A stretch of 64,000 nt of DNA from Anaerolineales bacterium (GCA_050115475.1 JASFQL010000004.1:93263-157262), one strand, 5' to 3'; shown: positions 19,975-30,572, counted from the stretch's first letter. Notes: generated by a model not told the origin, from the letters alone. Numbers and translations are program-made.

Positions 19975-21192
19975 CTATTCCTCCCTAGCAATTCTAATCG
20001 CTTCTTTCATCTGCGTATAGTGGCTGCGGGTGTGCCGGGGCAAACCAAGCATCGGCATGAAGGTGTAAGCCAGGTTATGGTAGGAAATCTTGCGAGCGAC
20101 GAACTCATCGGGCAGGTTCTCGAGGGTCTCCACGGTGAGTTGTTCGTTACGCTTGATCTCTGCGATCAAATCTGCCACGGTAGGATAGGCTTTGGCCAGA
20201 GCGGTGATTTGGGCGAGGTCGTTGAAAAATCCGGGGGCACGCTGACCACCGACACTCGTAGAGATGTCCAGGAAAACCCATCGCTCTGTATAAAGCAAAT
20301 GAGCAAGAGTCTCTTTAGCGCTCCATTCTTCAGGAGCGGGGCGCCTGGTCGCTTCTTCTTCCGATACCCCTTTGAAGATTTCCTCGATCTCCTTGTCGAG
20401 TTCTTTATAGATTTTCTCAACCTCTTTGGCCAATCCTTTTGCGGTGGGAGGAATGTCAGGGAAGGGACGACGCGACAACTTCACTGGGAGGCTTTTCTTT
20501 TCGCTCCCACGATAAAAGACCATCTCTACTTCATCATCGGCTTTATAAGGTCTCACAGCAATCCCAAATGAGGGAAACCCCTCAATGGCGGTACCGGCAA
20601 TCTCAACAATGACATCATCGGTCTGCAAGCCGGCTGCCTCGGCACCGGAATCGGGCACTGTGCCCGTAATCCAAACGCCTTTATCAACGGGTACACCGAG
20701 ACGTTCGATCTGGTCTTCATTCAAGGGCCCGGCCGGGAAGATCCCCAAGAGAGGGAGATCATATAAGCGCTTATCGATACCTCTCTCCATCACCCACTGT
20801 AAATTCAAGAGGGTCTTGGGCCATTCATCGTTGAAAGCTTTTGCCGTGTCTTCCCACGCCTTTCCTGTGCCAATACCGCTGTGTTTTACGATCACCTGCG
20901 TGCCGCCGTCTTTCGCTTTCAACGACACTTCCACTTCGGTAGAGGCAGGCTCATCACGACCACGCCAAGTGAAAGCGACCATTTTGTTTTCATTTACCTT
21001 AGTGACCGTACCGCTGGCGTAATAGCCCTGGTTCCACCAGAAGTAACAGCGGCCGTTTTCATTGGCATCGATCTCTGCGACATTGCAGAGCCAGGTTTGA
21101 AGCGCCGGCTGGTTGGTCAGCGCGAAGTAAAGCTGCTCGACGGGTGCATCGATCTGCTGGGTAAAAGTTAGGGTTTGGGTCTTTTCAGCCAT
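19975..21192 (-). CDS. SRPBCC(AHSA1)-PDZ-DinB three-domain protein, paralog 1
   Basis: IDAPVEQLYFALT; PDZ GAEAAGLQTDDVI; DinB WSAKETLAHL...HTRSH; ATG 21192 after AAGGAG. Confidence 0.8.
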   Translation of the reverse strand: MAEKTQTLTFTQQIDAPVEQLYFALTNQPALQTWLCNVAEIDANENGRCYFWWNQGYYASGTVTKVNENKMVAFTWRGRDEPASTEVEVSLKAKDGGTQVIVKHSGIGTGKAWEDTAKAFNDEWPKTLLNLQWVMERGIDKRLYDLPLLGIFPAGPLNEDQIERLGVPVDKGVWITGTVPDSGAEAAGLQTDDVIVEIAGTAIEGFPSFGIAVRPYKADDEVEMVFYRGSEKKSLPVKLSRRPFPDIPPTAKGLAKEVEKIYKELDKEIEEIFKGVSEEEATRRPAPEEWSAKETLAHLLYTERWVFLDISTSVGGQRAPGFFNDLAQITALAKAYPTVADLIAEIKRNEQLTVETLENLPDEFVARKISYHNLAYTFMPMLGLPRHTRSHYTQMKEAIRIAREE

Positions 21193-21306
21193 TATCTTTT
21201 CTCCTTTTCCTGAAACAATGGATTTGATTATTCTTCCTTCATGGGGTGGGCTCCGCACAGACCCACCCCAAATGAGGAGGAGCTACTCACAGCTCCCCGG
21301 CAGGCA

Positions 21307-21699
21307 TTATCTATACAACATTTCTGAAAACTGGTTTTCCTCAGAACCCCAGACGTTGGTCTCCCCTGCGGGGTAAAACGCCATCACAAGGAATGGATCG
21401 TCGCCAAAGGACTTGTCACAATGGGGTGTGCGGGCAGGGACAACGTAGAAATCACCTGGCCTAACGATCCTCTTGGTATCGCCAATTCTCAACACAGCCT
21501 TGCCTGAAACGACTATGCTAATCTGTTCGTGCTCGTGCGTATGAAGAGGGGTATCGTATCCAGGAAAGGTCGTATATAAGACCATTAGCATATTGTCTTC
21601 ATACAGGCAGGCGAGGATGGTTGGCTTGACTGCCTCCCGTTGAGAAAGGTCAGTCAGGTCTGTCGTATCAGATTCATACAGTGAGTGTGTGCGCAACAT
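21307..21699 (-). CDS. Cupin domain protein
   Basis: PLHTHEHEQ and VPARTPH cupin motifs. Confidence 0.85.
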   Translation of the reverse strand: MLRTHSLYESDTTDLTDLSQREAVKPTILACLYEDNMLMVLYTTFPGYDTPLHTHEHEQISIVVSGKAVLRIGDTKRIVRPGDFYVVPARTPHCDKSFGDDPFLVMAFYPAGETNVWGSEENQFSEMLYR

Positions 21700-21727
21700 C
21701 CGATCACCTCTTATAAACTCGTGGTAC

Positions 21728-21838
21728 CAGGTAACTAACCGTTTGCTTTTAGAATTGAAACTGGTGCCCTATACGGCTAGTTAACGGTGAATGTGCAAAG
21801 GGCTTGAAATAGGAATAAAAATACTTTCGCACATTCAC
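21728..21838. repeat. Dispersed ~112-bp double-hairpin repeat, copy 1
   Basis: Similar to 33160..33272; inverted repeats TAACTAACCG/CGGCTAGTTA and GTGAATGTGC/GCACATTCAC. Confidence 0.85.
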
Positions 21839-22834
21839 TTAACCGGCTTGCTCCCTTTCGAGCAAGCGCTCAATTTCTTTCATCTGGTCCTCCTTGAGGG
21901 GACCAAATTCCATCGCTTTCACATTTTCTTCCACCTGTTTTACCGTCTTGAAACCAGGGATGGGAACGGTGCGTTCATGGCGAGCCCAGTTCCAACCCAG
22001 GGCGGCCTGCGCCAAGGTACGTCCATCGCTGGTGAGGACATCGTGCACGGCCTCCAACTGTTTGAGCCTGCGCCCGCCGCGATCATATTCTTTCAGATTC
22101 CAGGCCTGGCGGATATCGTCTTCCGCGAAAGTCGAATCAGCGTTGAATTTTCCAGTGAGTAGGCCCATGAAGAGGGGGCTTTTATTGATGCTCCCAAGAT
22201 CGAATTCATCGACGACATCAAGCATGGTGGGTATCTCGATGAAGACATTGAGGATATGCTGGATGGTGGTGCAGTGTTCCCCAGGGCCAAAAGCACGGGC
22301 ACCCTCGGGGTTGTCGGTGCTCCAGCCATACCAGCGAATCTTGCCCTCCGCGACCAATTCTTCTAAGATCTCCATCACAGCGGGGGCCTTTTCAGGGGGG
22401 TAATCTCCGACGTGGAGCTGGAAGAGGTCGATGTAATCCATGTTTAGGCGGCGCAGGCTGTTCTCGCAATCTTTCCGGATGTTGCCAGGCACTGCCTCGT
22501 GGTCGTTACGAATAAACTTCTTTTTCTCATCCACCAGATAACCAAATTTGGTGGCAACGACCACCCGATCGCGTTTCCCGGCCAGGGCTTTTCCCAAGAC
22601 CCCTTCGCTGTGCCCGGCCCCGTAATTGGCGGCGGTATCGAAGAAAGTGACCCCCAGATCGAGACCAGCGTGGATGGCACGGATTGATTCTTTATCGTCG
22701 ATCTTTCCCCAGCCGGCTGGATAGGGATCGACTTCCCCATTATCATAGGTCCACGGACCGCCGATCGCCCAACAGCCCATACCCATGGCACTGACTTCTA
22801 ACCCGGATTTCCCGAGTGTACGTTTCATATTCAT
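21839..22834 (-). CDS. Aldo/keto reductase
   Basis: SAMGMGCWAIGG, FFDTAANYG, ATKFG, DLFQLH and IPG motifs. Confidence 0.92.
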   Translation of the reverse strand: MNMKRTLGKSGLEVSAMGMGCWAIGGPWTYDNGEVDPYPAGWGKIDDKESIRAIHAGLDLGVTFFDTAANYGAGHSEGVLGKALAGKRDRVVVATKFGYLVDEKKKFIRNDHEAVPGNIRKDCENSLRRLNMDYIDLFQLHVGDYPPEKAPAVMEILEELVAEGKIRWYGWSTDNPEGARAFGPGEHCTTIQHILNVFIEIPTMLDVVDEFDLGSINKSPLFMGLLTGKFNADSTFAEDDIRQAWNLKEYDRGGRRLKQLEAVHDVLTSDGRTLAQAALGWNWARHERTVPIPGFKTVKQVEENVKAMEFGPLKEDQMKEIERLLEREQAG

Positions 22835-22844
22835 CTCCTTTGTA

Positions 22845-24083
22845 CTAATCCGTTGAATCGAAGGCTAATTCTTCTGTTTTCTCCGGAACCTTGAACTTCA
22901 ACCAAATGGGGATAAGCGTGATCAGCGCTGCACCTGCAGTAATCGTAAAGGGCAGGCGGGGGCTGAAACGCTCCCACAACTGGGCGCCAATCCAAGGCGC
23001 AGGAAGAGAAATCAATCCGATGCTGCTGCGGAACAAGCCCATGAAAATCCCCAACATTTTTTGCGGGACGACTTTGGTCATCAATGAGTTATAGGCCGGA
23101 CTGAGGAGACCGACGCCGGTGCCGAAGATCACCCAGGTGACGGCAAAACCCATGAAATTGGATGCTTGTAAAAAATACACGAAGGCGGCAAAGACCATGG
23201 CAAAGCCGAGGGTGATGGGCACTCTTTCTTCATATCTATCCACCAATTTACCGGACAGCATAGGCGTGAACATCATGGCAATGGAGAAAATAGCGCCGAG
23301 GATCCCAATCTGTTCTACAGAGATACCAGCGATTTGCTCGAGGTAGAGGGGCTGCAACTCACTGGACAAACGAAAGGCGGTATCCCGGATGCCGTCGGTG
23401 ATGAATATCCAGGTAATCACACCTCCCCCGACCAGCATGCCAAACATTGTCTTGACGCTAGACTTGAAGGACGCAGCGGTAAGTTCCTGGGTGCTTTGCT
23501 CTCGCGGTGACTTCATGGTAGTTGCCATCCAGATACGTAATCCCGCCGCAAGGGTATAAAGAATGCCAGAGGTCAAAATCATGGCCTTGAACCCATAGGC
23601 CCCCACCAGCAAACCGCCAAGCGGAGGTCCTACGACGCCAGTAATCTGGTAGATGGTATCGGTGATGCCGAAGACCCGGCCGCGATTTTCTTCTTTGGAG
23701 TTCTCGGCGATGAAAGCCCCAAAGCTGGGGCCGACCAGGGCATAGGGGATCTGGTTGACCGAAAGGGCGACCAACATCCACTGCCAGGAAGGGGCAAGAA
23801 TCATAAAGGTCCAACCGAGGATGCCACCGATACTGCCGATGGCAATAGCCCGCAAGCGCCCGATGGAATCGGACAGCCATCCGCCAAAGACCAGAAGGAA
23901 GAGAATAACGATCGAAGAGAGGGTAAAGACCATGCCGACCTGCTCAACGCTGGCGCCCAACTCTGTCAGATAGAGGGGGACGAACATGAGAGTCATGGAC
24001 CCGGCGATATTCGCAAGGACCATGGCAAACATAAACCAGCGCAAGATAGGTGGGATCAGGGGTTGTTTTTCAGAACTATTCAT
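22845..24083 (-). CDS. MFS transporter
   Basis: GGWLSDSIGR motif A; about 12 TM helices. Confidence 0.88.
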   Translation of the reverse strand: MNSSEKQPLIPPILRWFMFAMVLANIAGSMTLMFVPLYLTELGASVEQVGMVFTLSSIVILFLLVFGGWLSDSIGRLRAIAIGSIGGILGWTFMILAPSWQWMLVALSVNQIPYALVGPSFGAFIAENSKEENRGRVFGITDTIYQITGVVGPPLGGLLVGAYGFKAMILTSGILYTLAAGLRIWMATTMKSPREQSTQELTAASFKSSVKTMFGMLVGGGVITWIFITDGIRDTAFRLSSELQPLYLEQIAGISVEQIGILGAIFSIAMMFTPMLSGKLVDRYEERVPITLGFAMVFAAFVYFLQASNFMGFAVTWVIFGTGVGLLSPAYNSLMTKVVPQKMLGIFMGLFRSSIGLISLPAPWIGAQLWERFSPRLPFTITAGAALITLIPIWLKFKVPEKTEELAFDSTD

Positions 24084-24107
24084 GACTTCGATTTACTTGC
24101 ACTATGT

Positions 24108-24326
24108 TTAGAATATTTCCACGTGGAAATATGTATTATCCGGTTCCTCTTTGCCCCCATCTTCATCCGGGTCGCCATCGGGTGTTATGAGGCTACAGGA
24201 ATCCACGAAGGTGCAGCTTTTTAATTCTTCCTTACATTTACAACAGGCATACCAGAGGTATTTGGGGCTGTATTCTTTTTTGTCTTTATTGCTGAAACAA
24301 GTCACTTCTGTTATCTCCTTGTGCAT
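24108..24326 (-). CDS. Small hypothetical Cys-containing protein (possibly a pseudogene)
   Basis: 72-aa ORF with CCKC, downstream of a consensus promoter; no recognised family. Confidence 0.3.
   Translation of the reverse strand: MHKEITEVTCFSNKDKKEYSPKYLWYACCKCKEELKSCTFVDSCSLITPDGDPDEDGGKEEPDNTYFHVEIF
24113..24132. other. parS-like perfect 20-bp palindrome ATATTTCCACGTGGAAATAT
   Basis: Core TTCCACGTGGAA matches parS (TGTTNCACGTGAAACA); outer positions differ; 1.2 kb from the oriC candidate. Confidence 0.5.
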
Positions 24327-24352
24327 GAATGTTTCATTCGATAGCTTTCAGA

Positions 24353-24568
24353 TCATTCCAACATACCCTCTTTCTCTTTCTTGATTTTCTCAGCTACGGT
24401 TTCTTCAAGGCTTTCAGGCAGTTTCACGATAATTTCCAAGATATCATCTGAGCGGTCCACTTCCTTATGGGATATCGACTTCCGCACGACCTCAAGCTCG
24501 TCCCTGTCTTCGTGCTGAACGTTCTCTTGGTTTCCAACAATCAGGTTGATATGAACGCCACTCATCAC
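24353..24568 (-). CDS. Small hypothetical protein
   Basis: 71-aa ORF with GAGAAGGGA RBS, first ORF after a consensus promoter. Confidence 0.4.
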   Translation of the reverse strand: MMSGVHINLIVGNQENVQHEDRDELEVVRKSISHKEVDRSDDILEIIVKLPESLEETVAEKIKKEKEGMLE

Positions 24569-24623
24569 TGAATCCCTTCTCTGAATACAATTAGATAGTC
24601 ACCGAAATTAGGTTCTTGTCTTA

Positions 24624-24673
24624 GTTAGATTATTATCTAACAACATTATAGCGAGTTTTATCAACTGTGTCAA
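24624..24673 (-). promoter_or_regulatory. Perfect sigma70 promoter TTGACA-17-TATAAT with operator palindrome GTTAGAT-N4-ATCTAAC
   Basis: -35 at 24673-24668, -10 at 24650-24645, palindrome at 24624-24641 over the expected start site. Confidence 0.8.
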
Positions 24674-25005
24674 GTAATTTTCCACCTGATTCGGTTTTGA
24701 ATTTGGTTTTCATTTCTAAGGATCAGATCGAGAGTATGGTTTCATGCCATTCATCACTGCAACCCTATCAATACGGAATGGATGTGAAAGTTGAACTGAT
24801 ATAGGAAACGACTGACAGGGAAGATCGAGTTTTACAAGTGGCTGTGATAACGCATTTTTCAGCCGGGTTTATGAGAATTATTATTGCCTTTTATCCAACT
24901 TGGTGAATCAAGGCAGCGCTTACATGTTACGTACGTATGGCAAGTGGAAACCCCAACCCCCTGACCCCCTTCCCCAGCCACGAACGTCGTTGGTGATCGG
25001 GTTAG

Positions 25006-25112
25006 TGGACTTCCCCCGATTTAGTTGACAAGAAAATGTCTCGAATGCTACTGTACCTACCCAAAGAAATTCAAATTGTAAGCTCTGGAACTGCCGAAAT
25101 CAAGCAGGAATA
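25006..25112 (+). mobile_element. Degenerate IS3-family left end and orfA fragment
   Basis: TGGACTTCCCCCGATTTAGTTGACA resembles an IS3-family IRL; followed by YPKKFKL*ALELPKSS, like the orfA start with an in-frame stop. Confidence 0.5.
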
Positions 25113-25282
25113 GCACATTTAAAATCGAAGTTGAACAGCACGGCAGGTGAGGAACACATACACAATATGGTAAACCATAAAGGGATCATAAATCCGTCTA
25201 TACTAGTCAATATTTGAGGGATATTTCTATAAAAATCTTCTCTACCCTCCAAGGAGCTAACTCTAGTGAATCAGTTGGAATA

Positions 25283-25640
25283 TGTGGATAACTCGCGATA
25301 AACTGTGGATAACTCGCAAAAACTGGGGAGAACTATGGAAAAACCTATCGGTTATGTTTATAGTTAACCCCCATATATGGGGGTAGTACAATTGTATTAG
25401 ACCATATCTTGAATGCTGAAAATACTCAAAGAAGAACTCATCAGGAAAGAAAAGTTATCCAGATTTAATCCGATTAAAGCTGTGGATAGCTTTCTATAAA
25501 ATAACCCCTATAAATACGCCAGCGACAGCAGAGATACCCCATATATCAGGCTCGATTGGGCAAGTATTTAAGTTTTCCACATATCCCCATCCCCTACTAC
25601 TATTACGATTAACTAATTATTTTAATTTGTTGATAGGATA
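25283..25640. other. oriC: Chromosomal replication origin (oriC) candidate
   Basis: Perfect DnaA boxes TGTGGATAA at 25283 and 25304; near-matches at 25324, 25334, 25455 and 25481; TTTTCCACA-TATCCCCAT-CCCC-TACTACTATTACGAT then an AT-rich tract (25573-25640); gene-strand and skew switch. Confidence 0.85.
25367..25551. promoter_or_regulatory. NrdR-box-like motifs, two pairs each 31 bp apart
   Basis: CCCCCATATATGGGGG (25368) + AGACCATATCTTGAAT (25399); weaker CCCCTATAAATACGCC (25505) + ACCCCATATATCAGGC (25536), compared with consensus acaCwAtATaTwGtgt. Confidence 0.5.
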
Positions 25641-25776
25641 ATTATTTCATTCCACTTTTTCTACAAATCCTGGATTCATTACTCTTACTTTATTATCATC
25701 GGCAATGAAAATTATCATGCAGAATCTATGATACTATTTTAACGCAGTGATTATCGGTCTTTTGCGGGAGGAAGAC

Positions 25777-26460
25777 ATGGGATTGACCTACACATTCTAT
25801 GGGCACGGTACCCACATGATCGAAACGGATGGGACAAAATTAATCGTGGATCCTTTCTTCACAGATAATCCTGCCACGCCGATCAGCGCAGACGAAGTTG
25901 AAGCAGACTACATCTTCATCAGCCACGGGCATGGCGACCATATCGGTGATACCGTAGACATCAGCAAACGCACCGGTGCGCTGGTCATCAGCAATTTCGA
26001 GATCGCCGGATGGCTGGAGATGCAAGGCGTGAAAACCCATGCCCAACACATCGGCGGTGGATATACTCACCCCTTTGGTTATCTAAAACTCACACTGGCG
26101 CTGCACGGCTCGGCCTTACCGGACGGCTCGAACGGCGGGAATCCAACCGGGATGCTGCTGACAACCCACCAGGGAGAAAAGGTCTACATGGCATGCGATA
26201 CGGGTTTCTTTGGGGACATGAAGTATATCGGTGAAGAAGGATTGGACCTGGCTGTCCTGCCTATCGGGGATAATTTCACGATGGGTCCAGAGGATGCGCT
26301 CAAGGCCGTGAAGCTGCTCAAGCCGAAGCACGTCGTCCCCTGCCACTACAACACCTGGCCAGTAATCGAACAAGATGCAGGTGCGTGGGTAAAACGGGTC
26401 AAAGAAGAAACAGAGACCGAGGCGCACCTACTCGAACCGGGAGAAAATCTATCGTTGTAG
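25777..26460 (+). CDS. Metal-dependent hydrolase, beta-lactamase fold (UPF0173-like)
   Basis: SHGHGDH, LPIGDNFTMG and PCHYNTW motifs. Confidence 0.9.
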   Translation: MGLTYTFYGHGTHMIETDGTKLIVDPFFTDNPATPISADEVEADYIFISHGHGDHIGDTVDISKRTGALVISNFEIAGWLEMQGVKTHAQHIGGGYTHPFGYLKLTLALHGSALPDGSNGGNPTGMLLTTHQGEKVYMACDTGFFGDMKYIGEEGLDLAVLPIGDNFTMGPEDALKAVKLLKPKHVVPCHYNTWPVIEQDAGAWVKRVKEETETEAHLLEPGENLSL

Positions 26461-26484
26461 GAGGGCGCAGCATGCTGCGCCTAC
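26457..26484. repeat. GTAG-type REP-like palindrome
   Basis: GTAG-GA-GGGCGCAGCATGCTGCGCCTAC, same core as 18360. Confidence 0.75.
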
Positions 26485-26509
26485 ATCCATTATTCGTAGG
26501 AGAACATTA

Positions 26510-27151
26510 ATGTTTAAGGATATGCGTGATCGTAGAGAACAAGAAGAAAATATGCAAGCAGAGGGGCGGCTACCACCGGGCCAATCGCTGACGCAACGGT
26601 TCCCCGTCTTACATTACGGCCCCGTGCCGAAATTCAATCCAAGCACGTGGAACCTGCACGTATGGGGTGAGGTCGAGGAAGAGGTGCGGTGGAATTGGGA
26701 TGAGTTCAACAAACTCCCGCGCAAGAAGGTGACGATGGATATCCACTGTGTGACCCGGTGGAGCAAGTTCGACACAGAATGGGAAGGGGTTTCACTGAAG
26801 ACGTTGGTGGATGAAGGCTTCATCAAGCTGAAGCCTACGGCGAAATTCCTCATCCAACACGCTGAGTACGGCTACACGTCCAATTTACCGCTGGAGGTGG
26901 GTTTGGCCGATAATTTCCTCCTGGCGACCCATTTCAACGGCGAACCACTGGAACCGGACCACGGCTATCCTCTGCGGGGGATCGTCGGCGTGCTCCCAGG
27001 TGAAAAAGACCTGATGACCCCTTATTTTTGGAAAGGCGCTAAATGGCTGCGGGGGCTGGAATTTACAAGCGGCGATAAACCCGGATTCTGGGAACAAGCG
27101 GGCTATCACAATGAAGCCGATATCTGGAAAGAACAACGTTTCGGACGTTGA
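26510..27151 (+). CDS. Sulfite oxidase-like molybdopterin-binding oxidoreductase
   Basis: RLPPGQ, DIHCVTRWS, HGYPLR, YFWKGAKW and GFWEQAGYH motifs. Confidence 0.9.
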   Translation: MFKDMRDRREQEENMQAEGRLPPGQSLTQRFPVLHYGPVPKFNPSTWNLHVWGEVEEEVRWNWDEFNKLPRKKVTMDIHCVTRWSKFDTEWEGVSLKTLVDEGFIKLKPTAKFLIQHAEYGYTSNLPLEVGLADNFLLATHFNGEPLEPDHGYPLRGIVGVLPGEKDLMTPYFWKGAKWLRGLEFTSGDKPGFWEQAGYHNEADIWKEQRFGR

Positions 27152-28134
27152 AGAATACGATAGGAGGAAGGAAAGCTGACAGGGGAAAACGAATAGATTA
27201 TCCAGCATCCAGTGTACCTGCGTCGATTGTGAACATTGTGTTGAAACGTTCGCTTTTGTATTTGTATCTTTGCCTGGCCTTAGGTTTGGGTGCATGCGGC
27301 GCGGTCACCGGCGTTGAGGAGACTTTGAGCGTTGAAACAAAAACGCCATTTGTAACAATGCCTGCCCCGACTGCAACGGTCCCTAGCAACACAGCGACGA
27401 GCAGCCCGACCCCAACGACGTTATCCTGCTGGGGGGAAGGCGGCAGTATCGTCCAGGGAGAGATCGAGAGCGAGCTGGTGGTCAACCCTTTTGCATTCCT
27501 GGTCTATCTCCCACCGTGCTACGAGCAGGAGCAAGATCGGTATTATCCGGTGCTGTACCTCATTCACGGGCAGAGCTTCAACCAGGACCAATGGGACAGG
27601 CTGGGAGCAGATGAGGTCAGCGATGCCTTGATCGCCGACGGAGAGGTTCCCCCATTCATCATCGTTATGCCGCAGGTGGTCGATTGGGCCGAGCCACCAG
27701 AGGTGAAGTTTGGGCAGGCAGTGGTCGAAGAACTGGTACCCTACATCGACGCGACCTACCGCACGATCCCGGAGCGGGAATACCGGGCGGTGGGGGGGCT
27801 ATCACGCGGGGCGGGATGGGCACTGCATTTAGGCTTACGCTATTGGGAGATGTTCAGCGCTTTTGGGGGACACAGCCTGCCGATATTTTGGAGCGATTCG
27901 AAGAAGGTGCGCGGCTGGCTGGCGGATATCCCAGAAGAGTCATTCCCGCGCATCTACGTCGACATAGCCACTCAAGACCTGGACGGAGTCAGAAGCTCGA
28001 CGAACTGGTTCATCGGTGTGCTCGAGGGCGAGGGATATCCACACGAATTCTACGTGTTCCCGGGGATACACGATGAGGAATACTGGGGCGATCACGTGGA
28101 GGAATACATCCGATTCTACACGGAAGAATGGTGA
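27148..28134 (+). CDS. Alpha/beta-hydrolase esterase, probable lipoprotein (true start probably downstream)
   Basis: LGAC lipobox, Thr/Pro linker, YPVLYLIHG, GLSRG nucleophile, GIHD. Confidence 0.85.
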   Translation: MKNTIGGRKADRGKRIDYPASSVPASIVNIVLKRSLLYLYLCLALGLGACGAVTGVEETLSVETKTPFVTMPAPTATVPSNTATSSPTPTTLSCWGEGGSIVQGEIESELVVNPFAFLVYLPPCYEQEQDRYYPVLYLIHGQSFNQDQWDRLGADEVSDALIADGEVPPFIIVMPQVVDWAEPPEVKFGQAVVEELVPYIDATYRTIPEREYRAVGGLSRGAGWALHLGLRYWEMFSAFGGHSLPIFWSDSKKVRGWLADIPEESFPRIYVDIATQDLDGVRSSTNWFIGVLEGEGYPHEFYVFPGIHDEEYWGDHVEEYIRFYTEEW

Positions 28135-28205
28135 CGGCTCCAATGATTATGTCTATCGATAAAACCGATTTGATAGAATATTCTCGATGATGGAGGATCA
28201 ATGCA

Positions 28206-29906
28206 ATGAAATCACCCCCTAACAACGCTTTAGATGCTTTGGATTGGCCCTGGGAAAAGTACGAGCCTTACTTTGAAGAGTTAGCTGAAAGGAAACTGGA
28301 TTCTGACAAGCTGAAGGACTGGATGCTGGATTGGAGCCACATGGAGAAGCTGCTCAACGAGGTAGAGCACAGACTGTGGGTGGCGACAACGGTGAACACG
28401 ACCGATAAAAAAGCGGCGGAGATGTACCACACTTTTCTCGATAAGGTCTATCCACCCGCCAAAACCGCAGGACAGAAGCTGAAAGAGAAATTGCTGGACA
28501 GCGGTCTGGAACCGGAGAATTTCGCCGTGCAACTGCGGGAGATGCGCACACAAGCCGACCTGTACCGGGAGGAGAATTTGCCCCTACTCTCGGAAGATAA
28601 AAAAATGGATACGGTGTACGACAAGATCGTGGGAGACCAGACGGTCGAGTGGGAGGGGAAAGACATCACCCTGATAAAGCTGCATCTCGTCCAGCAGGAC
28701 CAGGACAGGGAGAAGCGTGAAAAATCCTGGCGTTTGGCGATGGAACGGTGGCAGCAAGACCGCCAGGCTATCGACGAGCTGTGGGTCAAATTCATGAACG
28801 TGCGCGGGCAGATCGCCCGCAACGCGGGCTACGACAGCTACCGGGACTACCGGTGGCGGGAGATGCTGCGGCTAGACTTTACGCCGGAGGACTGCCTCAG
28901 GTTCGATGAGTCTATCGAAAAAGCGGCCGTGCCGGCAGCGTTGCGCGCCTACGAGAGACGAAAGGAGCGCCTCGGGTTGGACAGGCTGCGACCCTGGGAC
29001 CTGTACGTGGATCCCCTCAAACGAGAACCGCTGCGCCCCTACAAGGAACTCACGGAGTTGATCGATAAATGTTCGACCATCCTTCACAAAGTCGACCCGG
29101 AATTGGGTGGGTATTTCGATATCATGCGAGAAGAGGGTTTATTGGACCTGGAGAACCGAAAGGGGAAAGGGCCAAGCGCTTACTGCATCGAATACCAATT
29201 AGCCAAACGCCCCTTCATTTTCATGAACGCCGTGGGCCTGCACGAAGACGTGCAAACACTCTTGCACGAATCCGGGCATGCGTTCCACGTATTCGAGGCC
29301 AGCCACCTGCCCTACTTCCACCAATTAATCTACGGCTTCGAGATCGCCGAAGTGGCTTCTACATCCATGGAGCTGCTGACCGCGCCTTATCTGTTAGAAG
29401 ATGAAGGGGGATTCTACTCAATGAAAGAAGCCGCCCGGGCGCGCATCGAGCACCTAGAAGAGTATCTCTTGTTCTGGCCTTACATGGCGGTGGTGGATTC
29501 TTTCCAGCATTGGGTATACGAGAACCACGAAGCGGCCAGCGACCCGGCCAACTGCGATGCGCATTGGACCACGCTGTGGGACCGCTATATGAAAGGGGTG
29601 GACTGGAGCGGCCTTGAAGTGGAAAAGGCCAGCGGTTGGCACCGCAAGCTGCACATCTTCGAGGACCCCTTCTACTACGTTGACTACGGCCTGGCACAGT
29701 TGGGGGCCGTGCAGGTGTGGGCCAATTCATTGAGGGACCAGGCGGAAGCAGTCAGGAAATACCGGAGCGGGCTGGCACTTGGGGCCACCAGACCCTTGCC
29801 GGAGTTGTTCGAAGCGTGCGGCGCGAAGCTGGCTTTCGACGCCGAGACGCTTGGGGAAGTGGTCGGCTTGATCGAGCAGACGATCCAGGAATTGGAGATG
29901 ATCTAA
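28206..29906 (+). CDS. M3 family oligoendopeptidase (PepF-like)
   Basis: LLHESGHAFH, EIAEVAS and PFYYVDY motifs. Confidence 0.93.
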   Translation: MKSPPNNALDALDWPWEKYEPYFEELAERKLDSDKLKDWMLDWSHMEKLLNEVEHRLWVATTVNTTDKKAAEMYHTFLDKVYPPAKTAGQKLKEKLLDSGLEPENFAVQLREMRTQADLYREENLPLLSEDKKMDTVYDKIVGDQTVEWEGKDITLIKLHLVQQDQDREKREKSWRLAMERWQQDRQAIDELWVKFMNVRGQIARNAGYDSYRDYRWREMLRLDFTPEDCLRFDESIEKAAVPAALRAYERRKERLGLDRLRPWDLYVDPLKREPLRPYKELTELIDKCSTILHKVDPELGGYFDIMREEGLLDLENRKGKGPSAYCIEYQLAKRPFIFMNAVGLHEDVQTLLHESGHAFHVFEASHLPYFHQLIYGFEIAEVASTSMELLTAPYLLEDEGGFYSMKEAARARIEHLEEYLLFWPYMAVVDSFQHWVYENHEAASDPANCDAHWTTLWDRYMKGVDWSGLEVEKASGWHRKLHIFEDPFYYVDYGLAQLGAVQVWANSLRDQAEAVRKYRSGLALGATRPLPELFEACGAKLAFDAETLGEVVGLIEQTIQELEMI

Positions 29907-29981
29907 ATCTGAGGGGAAATATCAAGGCTGCTTGTTCACATCCTGGTAAAATAGTGTTCCCGGAAAGGTACGGGCACAAAT

Positions 29982-30572
29982 ATGTTCCATGAAATCCCCC
30001 AACCTGTATTAAATCAAATGAAAGCCCTGGAAGAGATAGATGCCAAGGACAGGCAGGACGGCACCCCGCACCTGGAGCAGTTGAGACAGATCCCGCCGGA
30101 GACCGGCAAATTCCTGGCCATCCTGGCAGCGAACACGCCCAAGGGCGCCTGGCTGGAAATCGGCACCAGCGGGGGATATTCGGCTTTGTGGATCGCGCAG
30201 GCCGCTAATTTATGCGGGACGAAACTAATCACTTACGAGCTGCTGCCGGATAAGGCGTCGCTTGCCAAAAAGACTTTCAAGAAAGCCAAGGTCGACGAGT
30301 TGGTGGAGTTCGTCCATGGGGATGCACGCGGACACGTGAAAGATTACGGCGAAGTGGCTTTTTGCTTCCTCGATGCGGAAAGAGAAATGTTTCTCGAATT
30401 CTACGAACTCATTGTCCCAAACCTCGTGTCAGGCGGGATTCTGGCAGCAGATAACGTCGTCAGCCACAGAGAGGAACTTGCGGAATTCATCACCATGGCT
30501 GAAGAAGACGCCACGGTAGATTCGGTGATTGTCCCGATCGGCAAAGGGCTTTTGGTGTGCAGGAAATTGTGA
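29982..30572 (+). CDS. O-methyltransferase
   Basis: LEIGTSGGYS, FLDAE and ADNV motifs. Confidence 0.88.
   Translation: MFHEIPQPVLNQMKALEEIDAKDRQDGTPHLEQLRQIPPETGKFLAILAANTPKGAWLEIGTSGGYSALWIAQAANLCGTKLITYELLPDKASLAKKTFKKAKVDELVEFVHGDARGHVKDYGEVAFCFLDAEREMFLEFYELIVPNLVSGGILAADNVVSHREELAEFITMAEEDATVDSVIVPIGKGLLVCRKL

Follow-up and report, generated by a model that had tools for sequence, protein, structure and literature searches.

The chromosomal replication origin (oriC) of an Anaerolineae bacterium, which lies at 25283-25735 of the window described here (the whole stretch of 64,000 nucleotides that was analysed), contains, set between its DnaA boxes, elements that resemble operators of NrdR, the repressor of ribonucleotide reductase (RNR) genes that reads dATP and ATP. 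The identity of these sites and their origin context are, as judged from sequence, well supported. By their arrangement the origin would hold two tandem NrdR operators, one strong/weak (A/A') and one weak/moderate (B'/B), through whose occupancy NrdR would couple initiation to the dNTP pool, a reading that we regard as reasonably probable. How bacteria match initiation to precursor supply has long been asked, and in the known links either DnaA acts on nrd promoters or the pools exert indirect effects; a dATP/ATP sensor with sites in the origin would, if true, constitute a direct, testable link in the opposite direction and the first direct sensor of the dNTP pool at a chromosomal origin. Predicted NrdR sites placed with precision in the origins of this bacterium and of at least 80 related species suggest a replication start wired directly to the precursor pool.

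Identity and layout of the origin

The initial annotation had taken the region for oriC, and several features bear this out. GC skew flips sign there within the 64-kb window, and along the 160.8-kb contig cumulative GC skew bottoms out at kb 119, the origin module occupying 118.5-118.95 kb. In a whole-genome cluster scan the density of DnaA boxes at the origin is the highest in the 4.3-Mb assembly, with two perfect and three one-mismatch boxes inside 400 bp, and a run of DnaA-trios is present. The flanking genes diverge away from the module, and the bin 24001-26000 has a GC fraction of 0.41, the second lowest of the window. A search of 20000-30000 against Rfam returned no RNA family. The features of the origin, including the candidate NrdR boxes treated in the following section, are listed in order of position.

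25283..25291, plus strand: DnaA box R1, TGTGGATAA, perfect; first of a conserved same-direction array
25304..25312, plus strand: DnaA box R2, TGTGGATAA, perfect; 21 bp past R1
25324..25332, plus strand: degenerate third DnaA box R3, TGGGGAGAA; TGTGGAnAA or TGGGGAnAA kept at the same place in relatives
25368..25383, no strand assigned: candidate NrdR box A, CCCCCATATATGGGGG; inside the perfect 18-bp palindrome ACCCCCATATATGGGGGT, 25367-25384
25399..25414, no strand assigned: candidate NrdR box A', weak partner, AGACCATATCTTGAAT; centre 31 bp from that of A; -1.3 bits
25455..25463, minus strand: inner DnaA box, TTATCCAGA, one mismatch
25481..25489, plus strand: inner DnaA box, TGTGGATAG, one mismatch
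25505..25520, no strand assigned: candidate NrdR box B', weak, CCCCTATAAATACGCC; 4.1 bits
25536..25551, no strand assigned: candidate NrdR box B, ACCCCATATATCAGGC; 12.1 bits
25573..25589, minus strand: tandem DnaA boxes of the unwinding module, TTTTCCACA (25573-25581) then ATATCCCCA; consensus tTTaTCCACATATCCACAGgCCCTAC kept in relatives
25595..25612, no strand assigned: DnaA-trio run, TAC TAC TAT TAC GAT TAA, with the middle A in all six; conserved in relatives
25613..25735, no strand assigned: AT-rich tract, likely the unwinding element; read from the sequence, with approximate boundaries

The basal unwinding system (BUS) is described, in the accessible text of the source, as tandem DnaA boxes, a short GC-rich spacer, at least three DnaA-trios and AT-rich DNA, with (.A.){3,} as the search pattern (PMC8287927). 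The run 25573-25612, in which a short C-rich spacer separates ATATCCCCA from the trios, fits that definition and is conserved in relatives, where the inner DnaA boxes are also present, albeit variable. The R1-N12-R2 pair occurs in at least 119 species records, as retrieved by a pattern that also required half of box A.

The dnaA gene of the window's genome sits on a different contig from the origin. Elsewhere in the order the module adjoins dnaA in three genomes, following it immediately in G029 and G027, which belong to other families, and lying near it in G036, where ~400 bp separate the dnaA match and the DNA match of the module; in other families of the order it is far off or on another contig (0.17-1 Mb away in G016, G002 and G038). 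This variable distance within the order indicates that the origin, or else dnaA, has relocated. The dnaA-adjacent region of the window's genome was considered as an alternative origin and rejected, no cluster of DnaA boxes being seen there by eye.

To the left of the origin, a non-coding C-rich stretch of ~60 bp (24948-25007) is a dispersed repeat, with ten more matches in the same genome and others in relatives such as G016 and G022. Further left, a perfect (12/12) sigma-70-type promoter (TTGACA-17-TATAAT; 24645-24673, minus strand) points leftward, toward two short ORFs, 24353-24568 and 24108-24326, neither of them annotated or matched in Pfam.

Candidate NrdR boxes and the NrdR operator of the clade

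A palindrome with a second motif 31 bp on, and a weaker second pair with the same 31-bp separation ahead of the unwinding module, were the basis of the initial annotation, and both pairs are found as described, at 25367-25384 with 25399-25414 and at 25505-25520 with 25536-25551, the 31 bp being measured between centres. Its further statement that the sites lie between clusters of DnaA boxes is likewise accurate, with DnaA boxes on both sides, and no candidate NrdR box overlaps any of them. Box B ends 21 bp ahead of the DnaA box TTTTCCACA and starts 41 bp ahead of the CCACATATCC anchor of the unwinding module, as it does in relatives.

The genome of the window encodes a single NrdR of 150 aa, with a Zn-ribbon (PF22811) and an ATP-cone (PF03477), directly upstream of the class II reductase gene nrdJ, so that absence of nrdR, named at the outset as an outcome that would speak against the proposal, does not apply. 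The sole match to an RNR large subunit in the genome is on contig C10 and adjoins nrdR, and a class III reductase was looked for without success in the assembly, which is 91.5% complete. As had been noted from the window itself, there is no RNR gene within ~5 kb of the origin boxes; this, together with the lack of a conserved promoter, marks the origin sites as NrdR-operator-like rather than as an RNR operator.

Among related genomes nrdR is present in 40 of 41, and the 30 nrdR promoters that were fetched have a strong proximal box ~30-40 bp ahead of the start codon and directly following a clear -10 element, with a weaker second box that in relatives is mostly 31 bp upstream of the proximal one. 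The proximal box is exactly CCCCCATATATGGGGG, as in box A, in nine relatives, and the same sequence is the proximal consensus; by sequence, box A is thus a perfect match to the NrdR operator consensus of the clade. The own nrdR promoter of the window's genome has boxes of 15.8 and 11.3 bits, 31 bp apart.

A symmetric matrix was built from 56 boxes in the nrdR promoters of 28 relatives, excluding the window's own genome as well as L052, whose anchor box had six mismatches. Scored in this way, box A attains 24.9 bits, the maximum of the matrix, and is the sole site of at least 22 bits among 4,316,252 genome positions. The other sites score lower, box B, at 12.1 bits, belonging to a class with 109 members of at least 12 bits genome-wide, box B' reaching 4.1 bits, and box A', at -1.3 bits, being at background, yet retaining the NrdR core C4 A6 A8 T9 T11. 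The A/A' combination fits the regular expression for NrdR pairs given in the accessible text of PMC12051234, and is the only pair in the 64-kb window to do so, an expression that is nonetheless permissive (95 pairs genome-wide vs ~68 expected); B'/B, despite a spacing of 31 bp, fails the core expression of the same source. Since A' is at background by the matrix, only comparative data and this permissive expression warrant calling A/A' a pair, and the argument for A' as a real site would come from its conservation and not from its score. That A' scores at background and that B and B' fail the published expression count against the main reading.

Matrix matches elsewhere in the genome inform on how the matrix performs. 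The only other strong tandem pair besides that of the nrdR promoter (L208:135-182, G000:C9:38934-38981; 16.2 and 14.5 bits, 32 bp apart) lies just past a TTGACA-type promoter and 42 bp ahead of a gene for Ham1/RdgB, a non-canonical NTP pyrophosphatase of nucleotide cleansing that is likely, on this evidence, to be a new member of the NrdR regulon; its presence among the matches implies that the matrix picks plausible regulon members. On the other hand, tRNA terminator hairpins account for two of the five top matches in the genome (C31:15888 and C33:4644), and the matrix alone is therefore not specific. These false NrdR boxes stem from two occurrences, one of them partial, of a single tRNA 3' end plus terminator hairpin (L206:940-1020 and L207:920-1020; G000:C31 and C33), a duplication that resembles that of the attachment site of an integrated element. 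A single NrdR-like box of 20.7 bits (G000:C10:57878-57893), ~2 kb upstream of nrdR, is situated between divergent genes for mraZ (109 bp off) and a class V aminotransferase (77 bp off). Many relatives also share a TTTAAGG-like word tens of bases upstream of the nrdR promoter (L037-L065), and a similar word precedes by ~50 bp the NrdR box upstream of dnaA (L220-L249).

Conservation in related origins

Within the order, a DNA search of 40 relatives gave origin-like matches in 16. One origin-like locus was examined from each of 14 relatives, and a site of at least 16 bits is present in eight of these 14. Twelve loci with the exact DnaA-box pair were aligned, leaving out L008, L014 and L021, which have no exact pair and show weaker boxes at the places expected for B' and B. 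Ten of the 12 share one order of elements: R1-R2-R3, A, a weak A', inner DnaA boxes, B', B, the unwinding module and AT-rich DNA. In L022 (G038), DnaA boxes replace box A and an A'-like site is kept. L016 and L017, possible counter-examples, were set aside as other clusters of DnaA boxes, since they share the DnaA pair and have neither the unwinding module nor an NrdR box. A strong NrdR box is absent from some origins in the sets assembled without bias, namely L022/G038, L185, L191 and L192.

A broader scan, with one genome per species and the pattern R1-N12-R2-N{50,80}-CCCCCANATAT, yielded at least 119 records, of which 80 were fetched and analysed. All 80 listed records are from Chloroflexota or Anaerolineae and include Bellilinea caldifistulae GOMI-1 and metagenome-assembled genomes labelled Anaerolinea thermophila and Longilinea. 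These loci were chosen by half of box A, so the frequency of box A among them is no estimate and only features outside the search pattern constitute a test. In 49 of the 80 the unsearched half of box A is GGGGG, and, across all listed variants of this half, G13 is kept while the outer bases decay outward. For the A' core, 55 of the 80 loci have it at +30 (50 loci) or +31 (five loci), and no other offset from 10 to 69 has it in more than two. The unwinding module was identified in 51 of the 80 loci. In 25 of these 51, box B is represented at -43..-39 from the module's anchor by a site scoring 6 bits or more, against 0/51 at five control offsets, and in 16/51 a B' site scoring 4 bits or more precedes B by 30-32 bp; such detection rates are low enough to count against the main reading. 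The boxes and their spacing, whose conservation in Anaerolineae origins had been put forward as the thing to check, do prove to be conserved there. Cultured Bellilinea caldifistulae GOMI-1 has a perfect box A and a box B of 22 bits.

An additional single box, the fifth, appears 54-55 or 44-46 bp ahead of R1 in these loci (L066-L145): a site of at least 8 bits falls within -75..-36 of R1 in 56 of 80, compared with none of 79-80 in five control windows. This box is absent from the origin of the window itself.

At the level of the class, the exact pattern of the unwinding module was matched in 11 of 301 genomes (ten, plus that of the window), a pattern too strict for frequency to be judged from it. 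Seven of ten module-anchored origins from other orders hold sites of at least 7 bits at similar places (510 bp examined in each; ~0.17 sites per locus expected). Boxes in nrdR promoters are clear in five of the ten genomes from other orders (G282, G239, G311, G202 and G038), and in G282 the nrdR-promoter box is of a CAC...GTG type and the origin box is its reverse complement; with clear promoter boxes in only five, the case for covariation rests mainly on this one genome. The species are related, and the counts overstate their independence. The initial observation is real and strongly beyond chance.

Helical phasing with the DnaA boxes

The distances that separate the boxes from the DnaA arrays are not evenly distributed. 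From R2 to A the spacer measures 54-56 bp (50 loci) or 65-67 bp (30 loci) in all 80 fetched origins, in an allowed range of 50-80 bp; distances from A to the unwinding module cluster at 177, 189, 197-200, 207-212 and 221 bp; and the two positions of the upstream single box are 10 bp apart. Spacings to the DnaA boxes thus step by ~11 bp, and in the window the centres of A', B' and B, at 31, 137 and 168 bp from that of A, are near whole turns of 10.5 bp. Steps of one turn suggest that a set orientation of the NrdR sites relative to the DnaA sites is required, although clades may account for part of the spacing classes.

NrdR boxes upstream of dnaA and the genes next to the origin

NrdR boxes recur upstream of dnaA. 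In the window's genome a box of 15.1 bits lies ~330 bp upstream of that gene (L003:2629-2644; G000:C17:10145-10160); among the 26 dnaA loci for which 600 bp upstream were available, 22 have a box of at least 10 bits at -314..-420, and this box directly adjoins a perfect DnaA box in four genomes belonging to a single genus.

The genes beside the origin module show no such constancy. Across ten origins they include an MBL-fold hydrolase, YchF, a GAF histidine kinase, a SpoU methylase (on the opposite strand), an LTD protein, a molybdopterin oxidoreductase, muramidases and a GNAT acetyltransferase, and this variation between relatives argues that the boxes are not operators of the adjoining gene. 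The hydrolase is the neighbour in just two of the ten, the window's genome and G005, which speaks against the possibility, raised with the original proposal, that NrdR merely represses the promoter of the downstream hydrolase. Contigs of four metatranscriptomic runs matching 24600-26500 cover the hydrolase gene only, start at 25757-25781 in all four and are silent on transcripts of the origin; at best they hint weakly at a start of the hydrolase mRNA past the AT-rich tract.

A proposed link between the dNTP pool and initiation, and its rivals

As set out in PMC12051234, a tetramer of NrdR carrying dATP together with ATP occupies two boxes and kinks DNA at each of them, whereas NrdR with ATP only cannot bind; two good boxes are required, with an integer number of turns needed between them. 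The spacer between the boxes of an NrdR operator is 14-17 or 24-27 bp. In the origin described here, plentiful dATP would place NrdR on A/A' and B'/B, flanking the inner DnaA boxes and abutting the unwinding module with no DnaA box covered, and the bound protein would alter the shape of the origin complex, making initiation respond directly to the dNTP pool. Because NrdR boxes of the clade are also found upstream of dnaA and of nrdR-nrdJ, we prefer a version with a common brake, in which NrdR would be expected to repress nrdJ and, by position, dnaA: high dATP would hold back dNTP synthesis, DnaA synthesis and origin firing alike, and a fall in dATP would release precursor synthesis, initiator synthesis and the origin together.

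What the sequence shows is the identity of the origin, the agreement of the sites with the NrdR operator of the clade, their conserved positions and their helical phasing. We infer that NrdR binds, that binding influences initiation and in which direction it does so, the last being a property that cannot be derived from sequence. Within the main reading, an inhibitory effect at the origin can be advanced tentatively, and a stimulatory or architectural one seems somewhat doubtful, even though a role as an architectural helper like IHF is possible and would, by analogy, fit well with the phased, non-overlapping placement. Close to being probable, in our estimate, is that NrdR forms a structural part of the Anaerolineae origin complex, with up to five boxes phased with the DnaA arrays and tetramers loaded with dATP and ATP kinking or looping the origin, which, with the boxes at dnaA and nrdJ, would turn one small nucleotide sensor into the shared switch of precursor synthesis, initiator synthesis and origin firing. 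Structure prediction for DnaA with NrdR, using two alignments, scored 0.00 and gave no answer, speaking neither for nor against a contact.

The same boxes could instead be ordinary NrdR operators of a promoter within the origin, serving a neighbouring gene, a small RNA or a read-through transcript, with any effect on initiation exerted indirectly via transcription. Weak promoter-like sequences (9/12) are indeed at hand, TGGAAA-17-TATAGT at 25336-25364 touching box A and TTAACC-17-TACAAT at 25364-25392 having it in the spacer, and the boxes of nrdR promoters do come right after a clear -10. Yet promoter-like sites are not enriched (7 vs 4.5 +/- 2.1 in shuffles), the flanks of box A in relatives, unlike nrdR promoters, are without conserved -35 and -10 hexamers, the downstream genes vary, one of them on the opposite strand, and the hydrolase has a promoter-like site of its own at 25705-25732; we consider this explanation improbable. 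No better are the prospects of NrdR binding the origin for the control of NrdR and RNR, for instance as a reservoir altered at firing that would tie expression of nrdJ and dnaA to replication status. It draws on the same conservation of sites as the main reading, origins double in copy number before any other DNA, and DnaA titration sites provide an established precedent, but a reservoir of two to five sites is very small and titration makes strict helical phasing with the DnaA arrays unnecessary, leaving it a distinctly unlikely account.

Finally, the palindromes might be no NrdR sites at all, their resemblance coincidental, and form a hairpin, cruciform or terminator or serve another protein. 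GC-rich arms around an ATAT centre are shared by the terminator hairpins of tRNA genes, which score 19.5-21.5 bits, and a weak T-rich tract is discernible past box A in the consensus of the 80 loci; no terminator-like site was found in 24500-25900, however, and it is the sequence that is kept and not the pairing, G13 being retained as the outer arm decays (GGACT, GGATA). Moreover, A', B' and B preserve the NrdR core at turn-spaced offsets, box A is identical to the operator at nrdR promoters, and the type of box shifts together with that of the nrdR promoter in G282, all of which makes coincidence very hard to credit.

Relation to known systems

The nearest relatives of the origin boxes are the NrdR operators of RNR promoters (E. 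coli nrdAB, nrdHIEF and nrdDG; S. coelicolor nrdRJ), which, in the accounts available, likewise consist of paired 16-bp palindromic boxes with centres about three turns apart; the origin boxes differ in having no RNR gene or conserved promoter, in being interleaved with DnaA boxes and in that one box of each pair is very weak. Single NrdR boxes have been predicted upstream of dnaA in Shewanella and of topA in Pseudomonas, as attributed to Rodionov and Gelfand 2005 in the accessible text of bioRxiv 10.1101/2025.03.28.645925. The dnaA-upstream boxes found here resemble the predicted Shewanella type, from which the origin pairs, with their conserved phasing, differ. The same text reports no NrdR-dependent expression of topA and, for E. 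coli and P. aeruginosa, a coincidence of NrdR boxes with expression changes at RNR operons only (bioRxiv 10.1101/2025.03.28.645925), which counts against NrdR acting at the origin. A literature search found no publication that places NrdR boxes in an origin, although Rodionov and Gelfand 2005 and RegPrecise, which were outside that search, may list related sites, and the word NrdR does not occur in the accessible text of a review of origin-binding proteins (PMC4285127).

Regulators that bind within origins are nonetheless well represented in the accessible text of that review. Sites for MtrA in oriC of Mycobacterium tuberculosis are located, as here, between DnaA boxes and not on top of them, and are thought to aid or impede DnaA oligomerisation (PMC4285127); MtrA, however, is a response regulator controlled by phosphorylation, whereas NrdR reads dATP and ATP directly. 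CtrA in Caulobacter, Spo0A in B. subtilis, AdpA in Streptomyces and HP1021 in H. pylori are master regulators that also bind oriC and control initiation, and the sites of the first three overlap DnaA boxes and compete with DnaA (PMC4285127), in contrast to the absence of overlap in the origin studied here; their signal is the state of development or of the cell cycle and not the nucleotide pools. IHF and Fis bend DNA at fixed, phased places between the DnaA sites of E. coli oriC (PMC4285127), much as NrdR kinks DNA (PMC12051234), but they are nucleoid proteins without a sensor for small molecules, and no kinship of sequence or fold to NrdR is implied.

Bellilinea caldifistulae GOMI-1, being cultured, offers a testable system, and in vitro assays exist for NrdR binding and for unwinding by DnaA. 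If true, the proposed link would broaden the role of NrdR beyond the RNR genes to which current work confines it. By its boxes in oriC, NrdR would fit among the transcription factors that double as origin-binding regulators, with dATP/ATP as an unusual signal.
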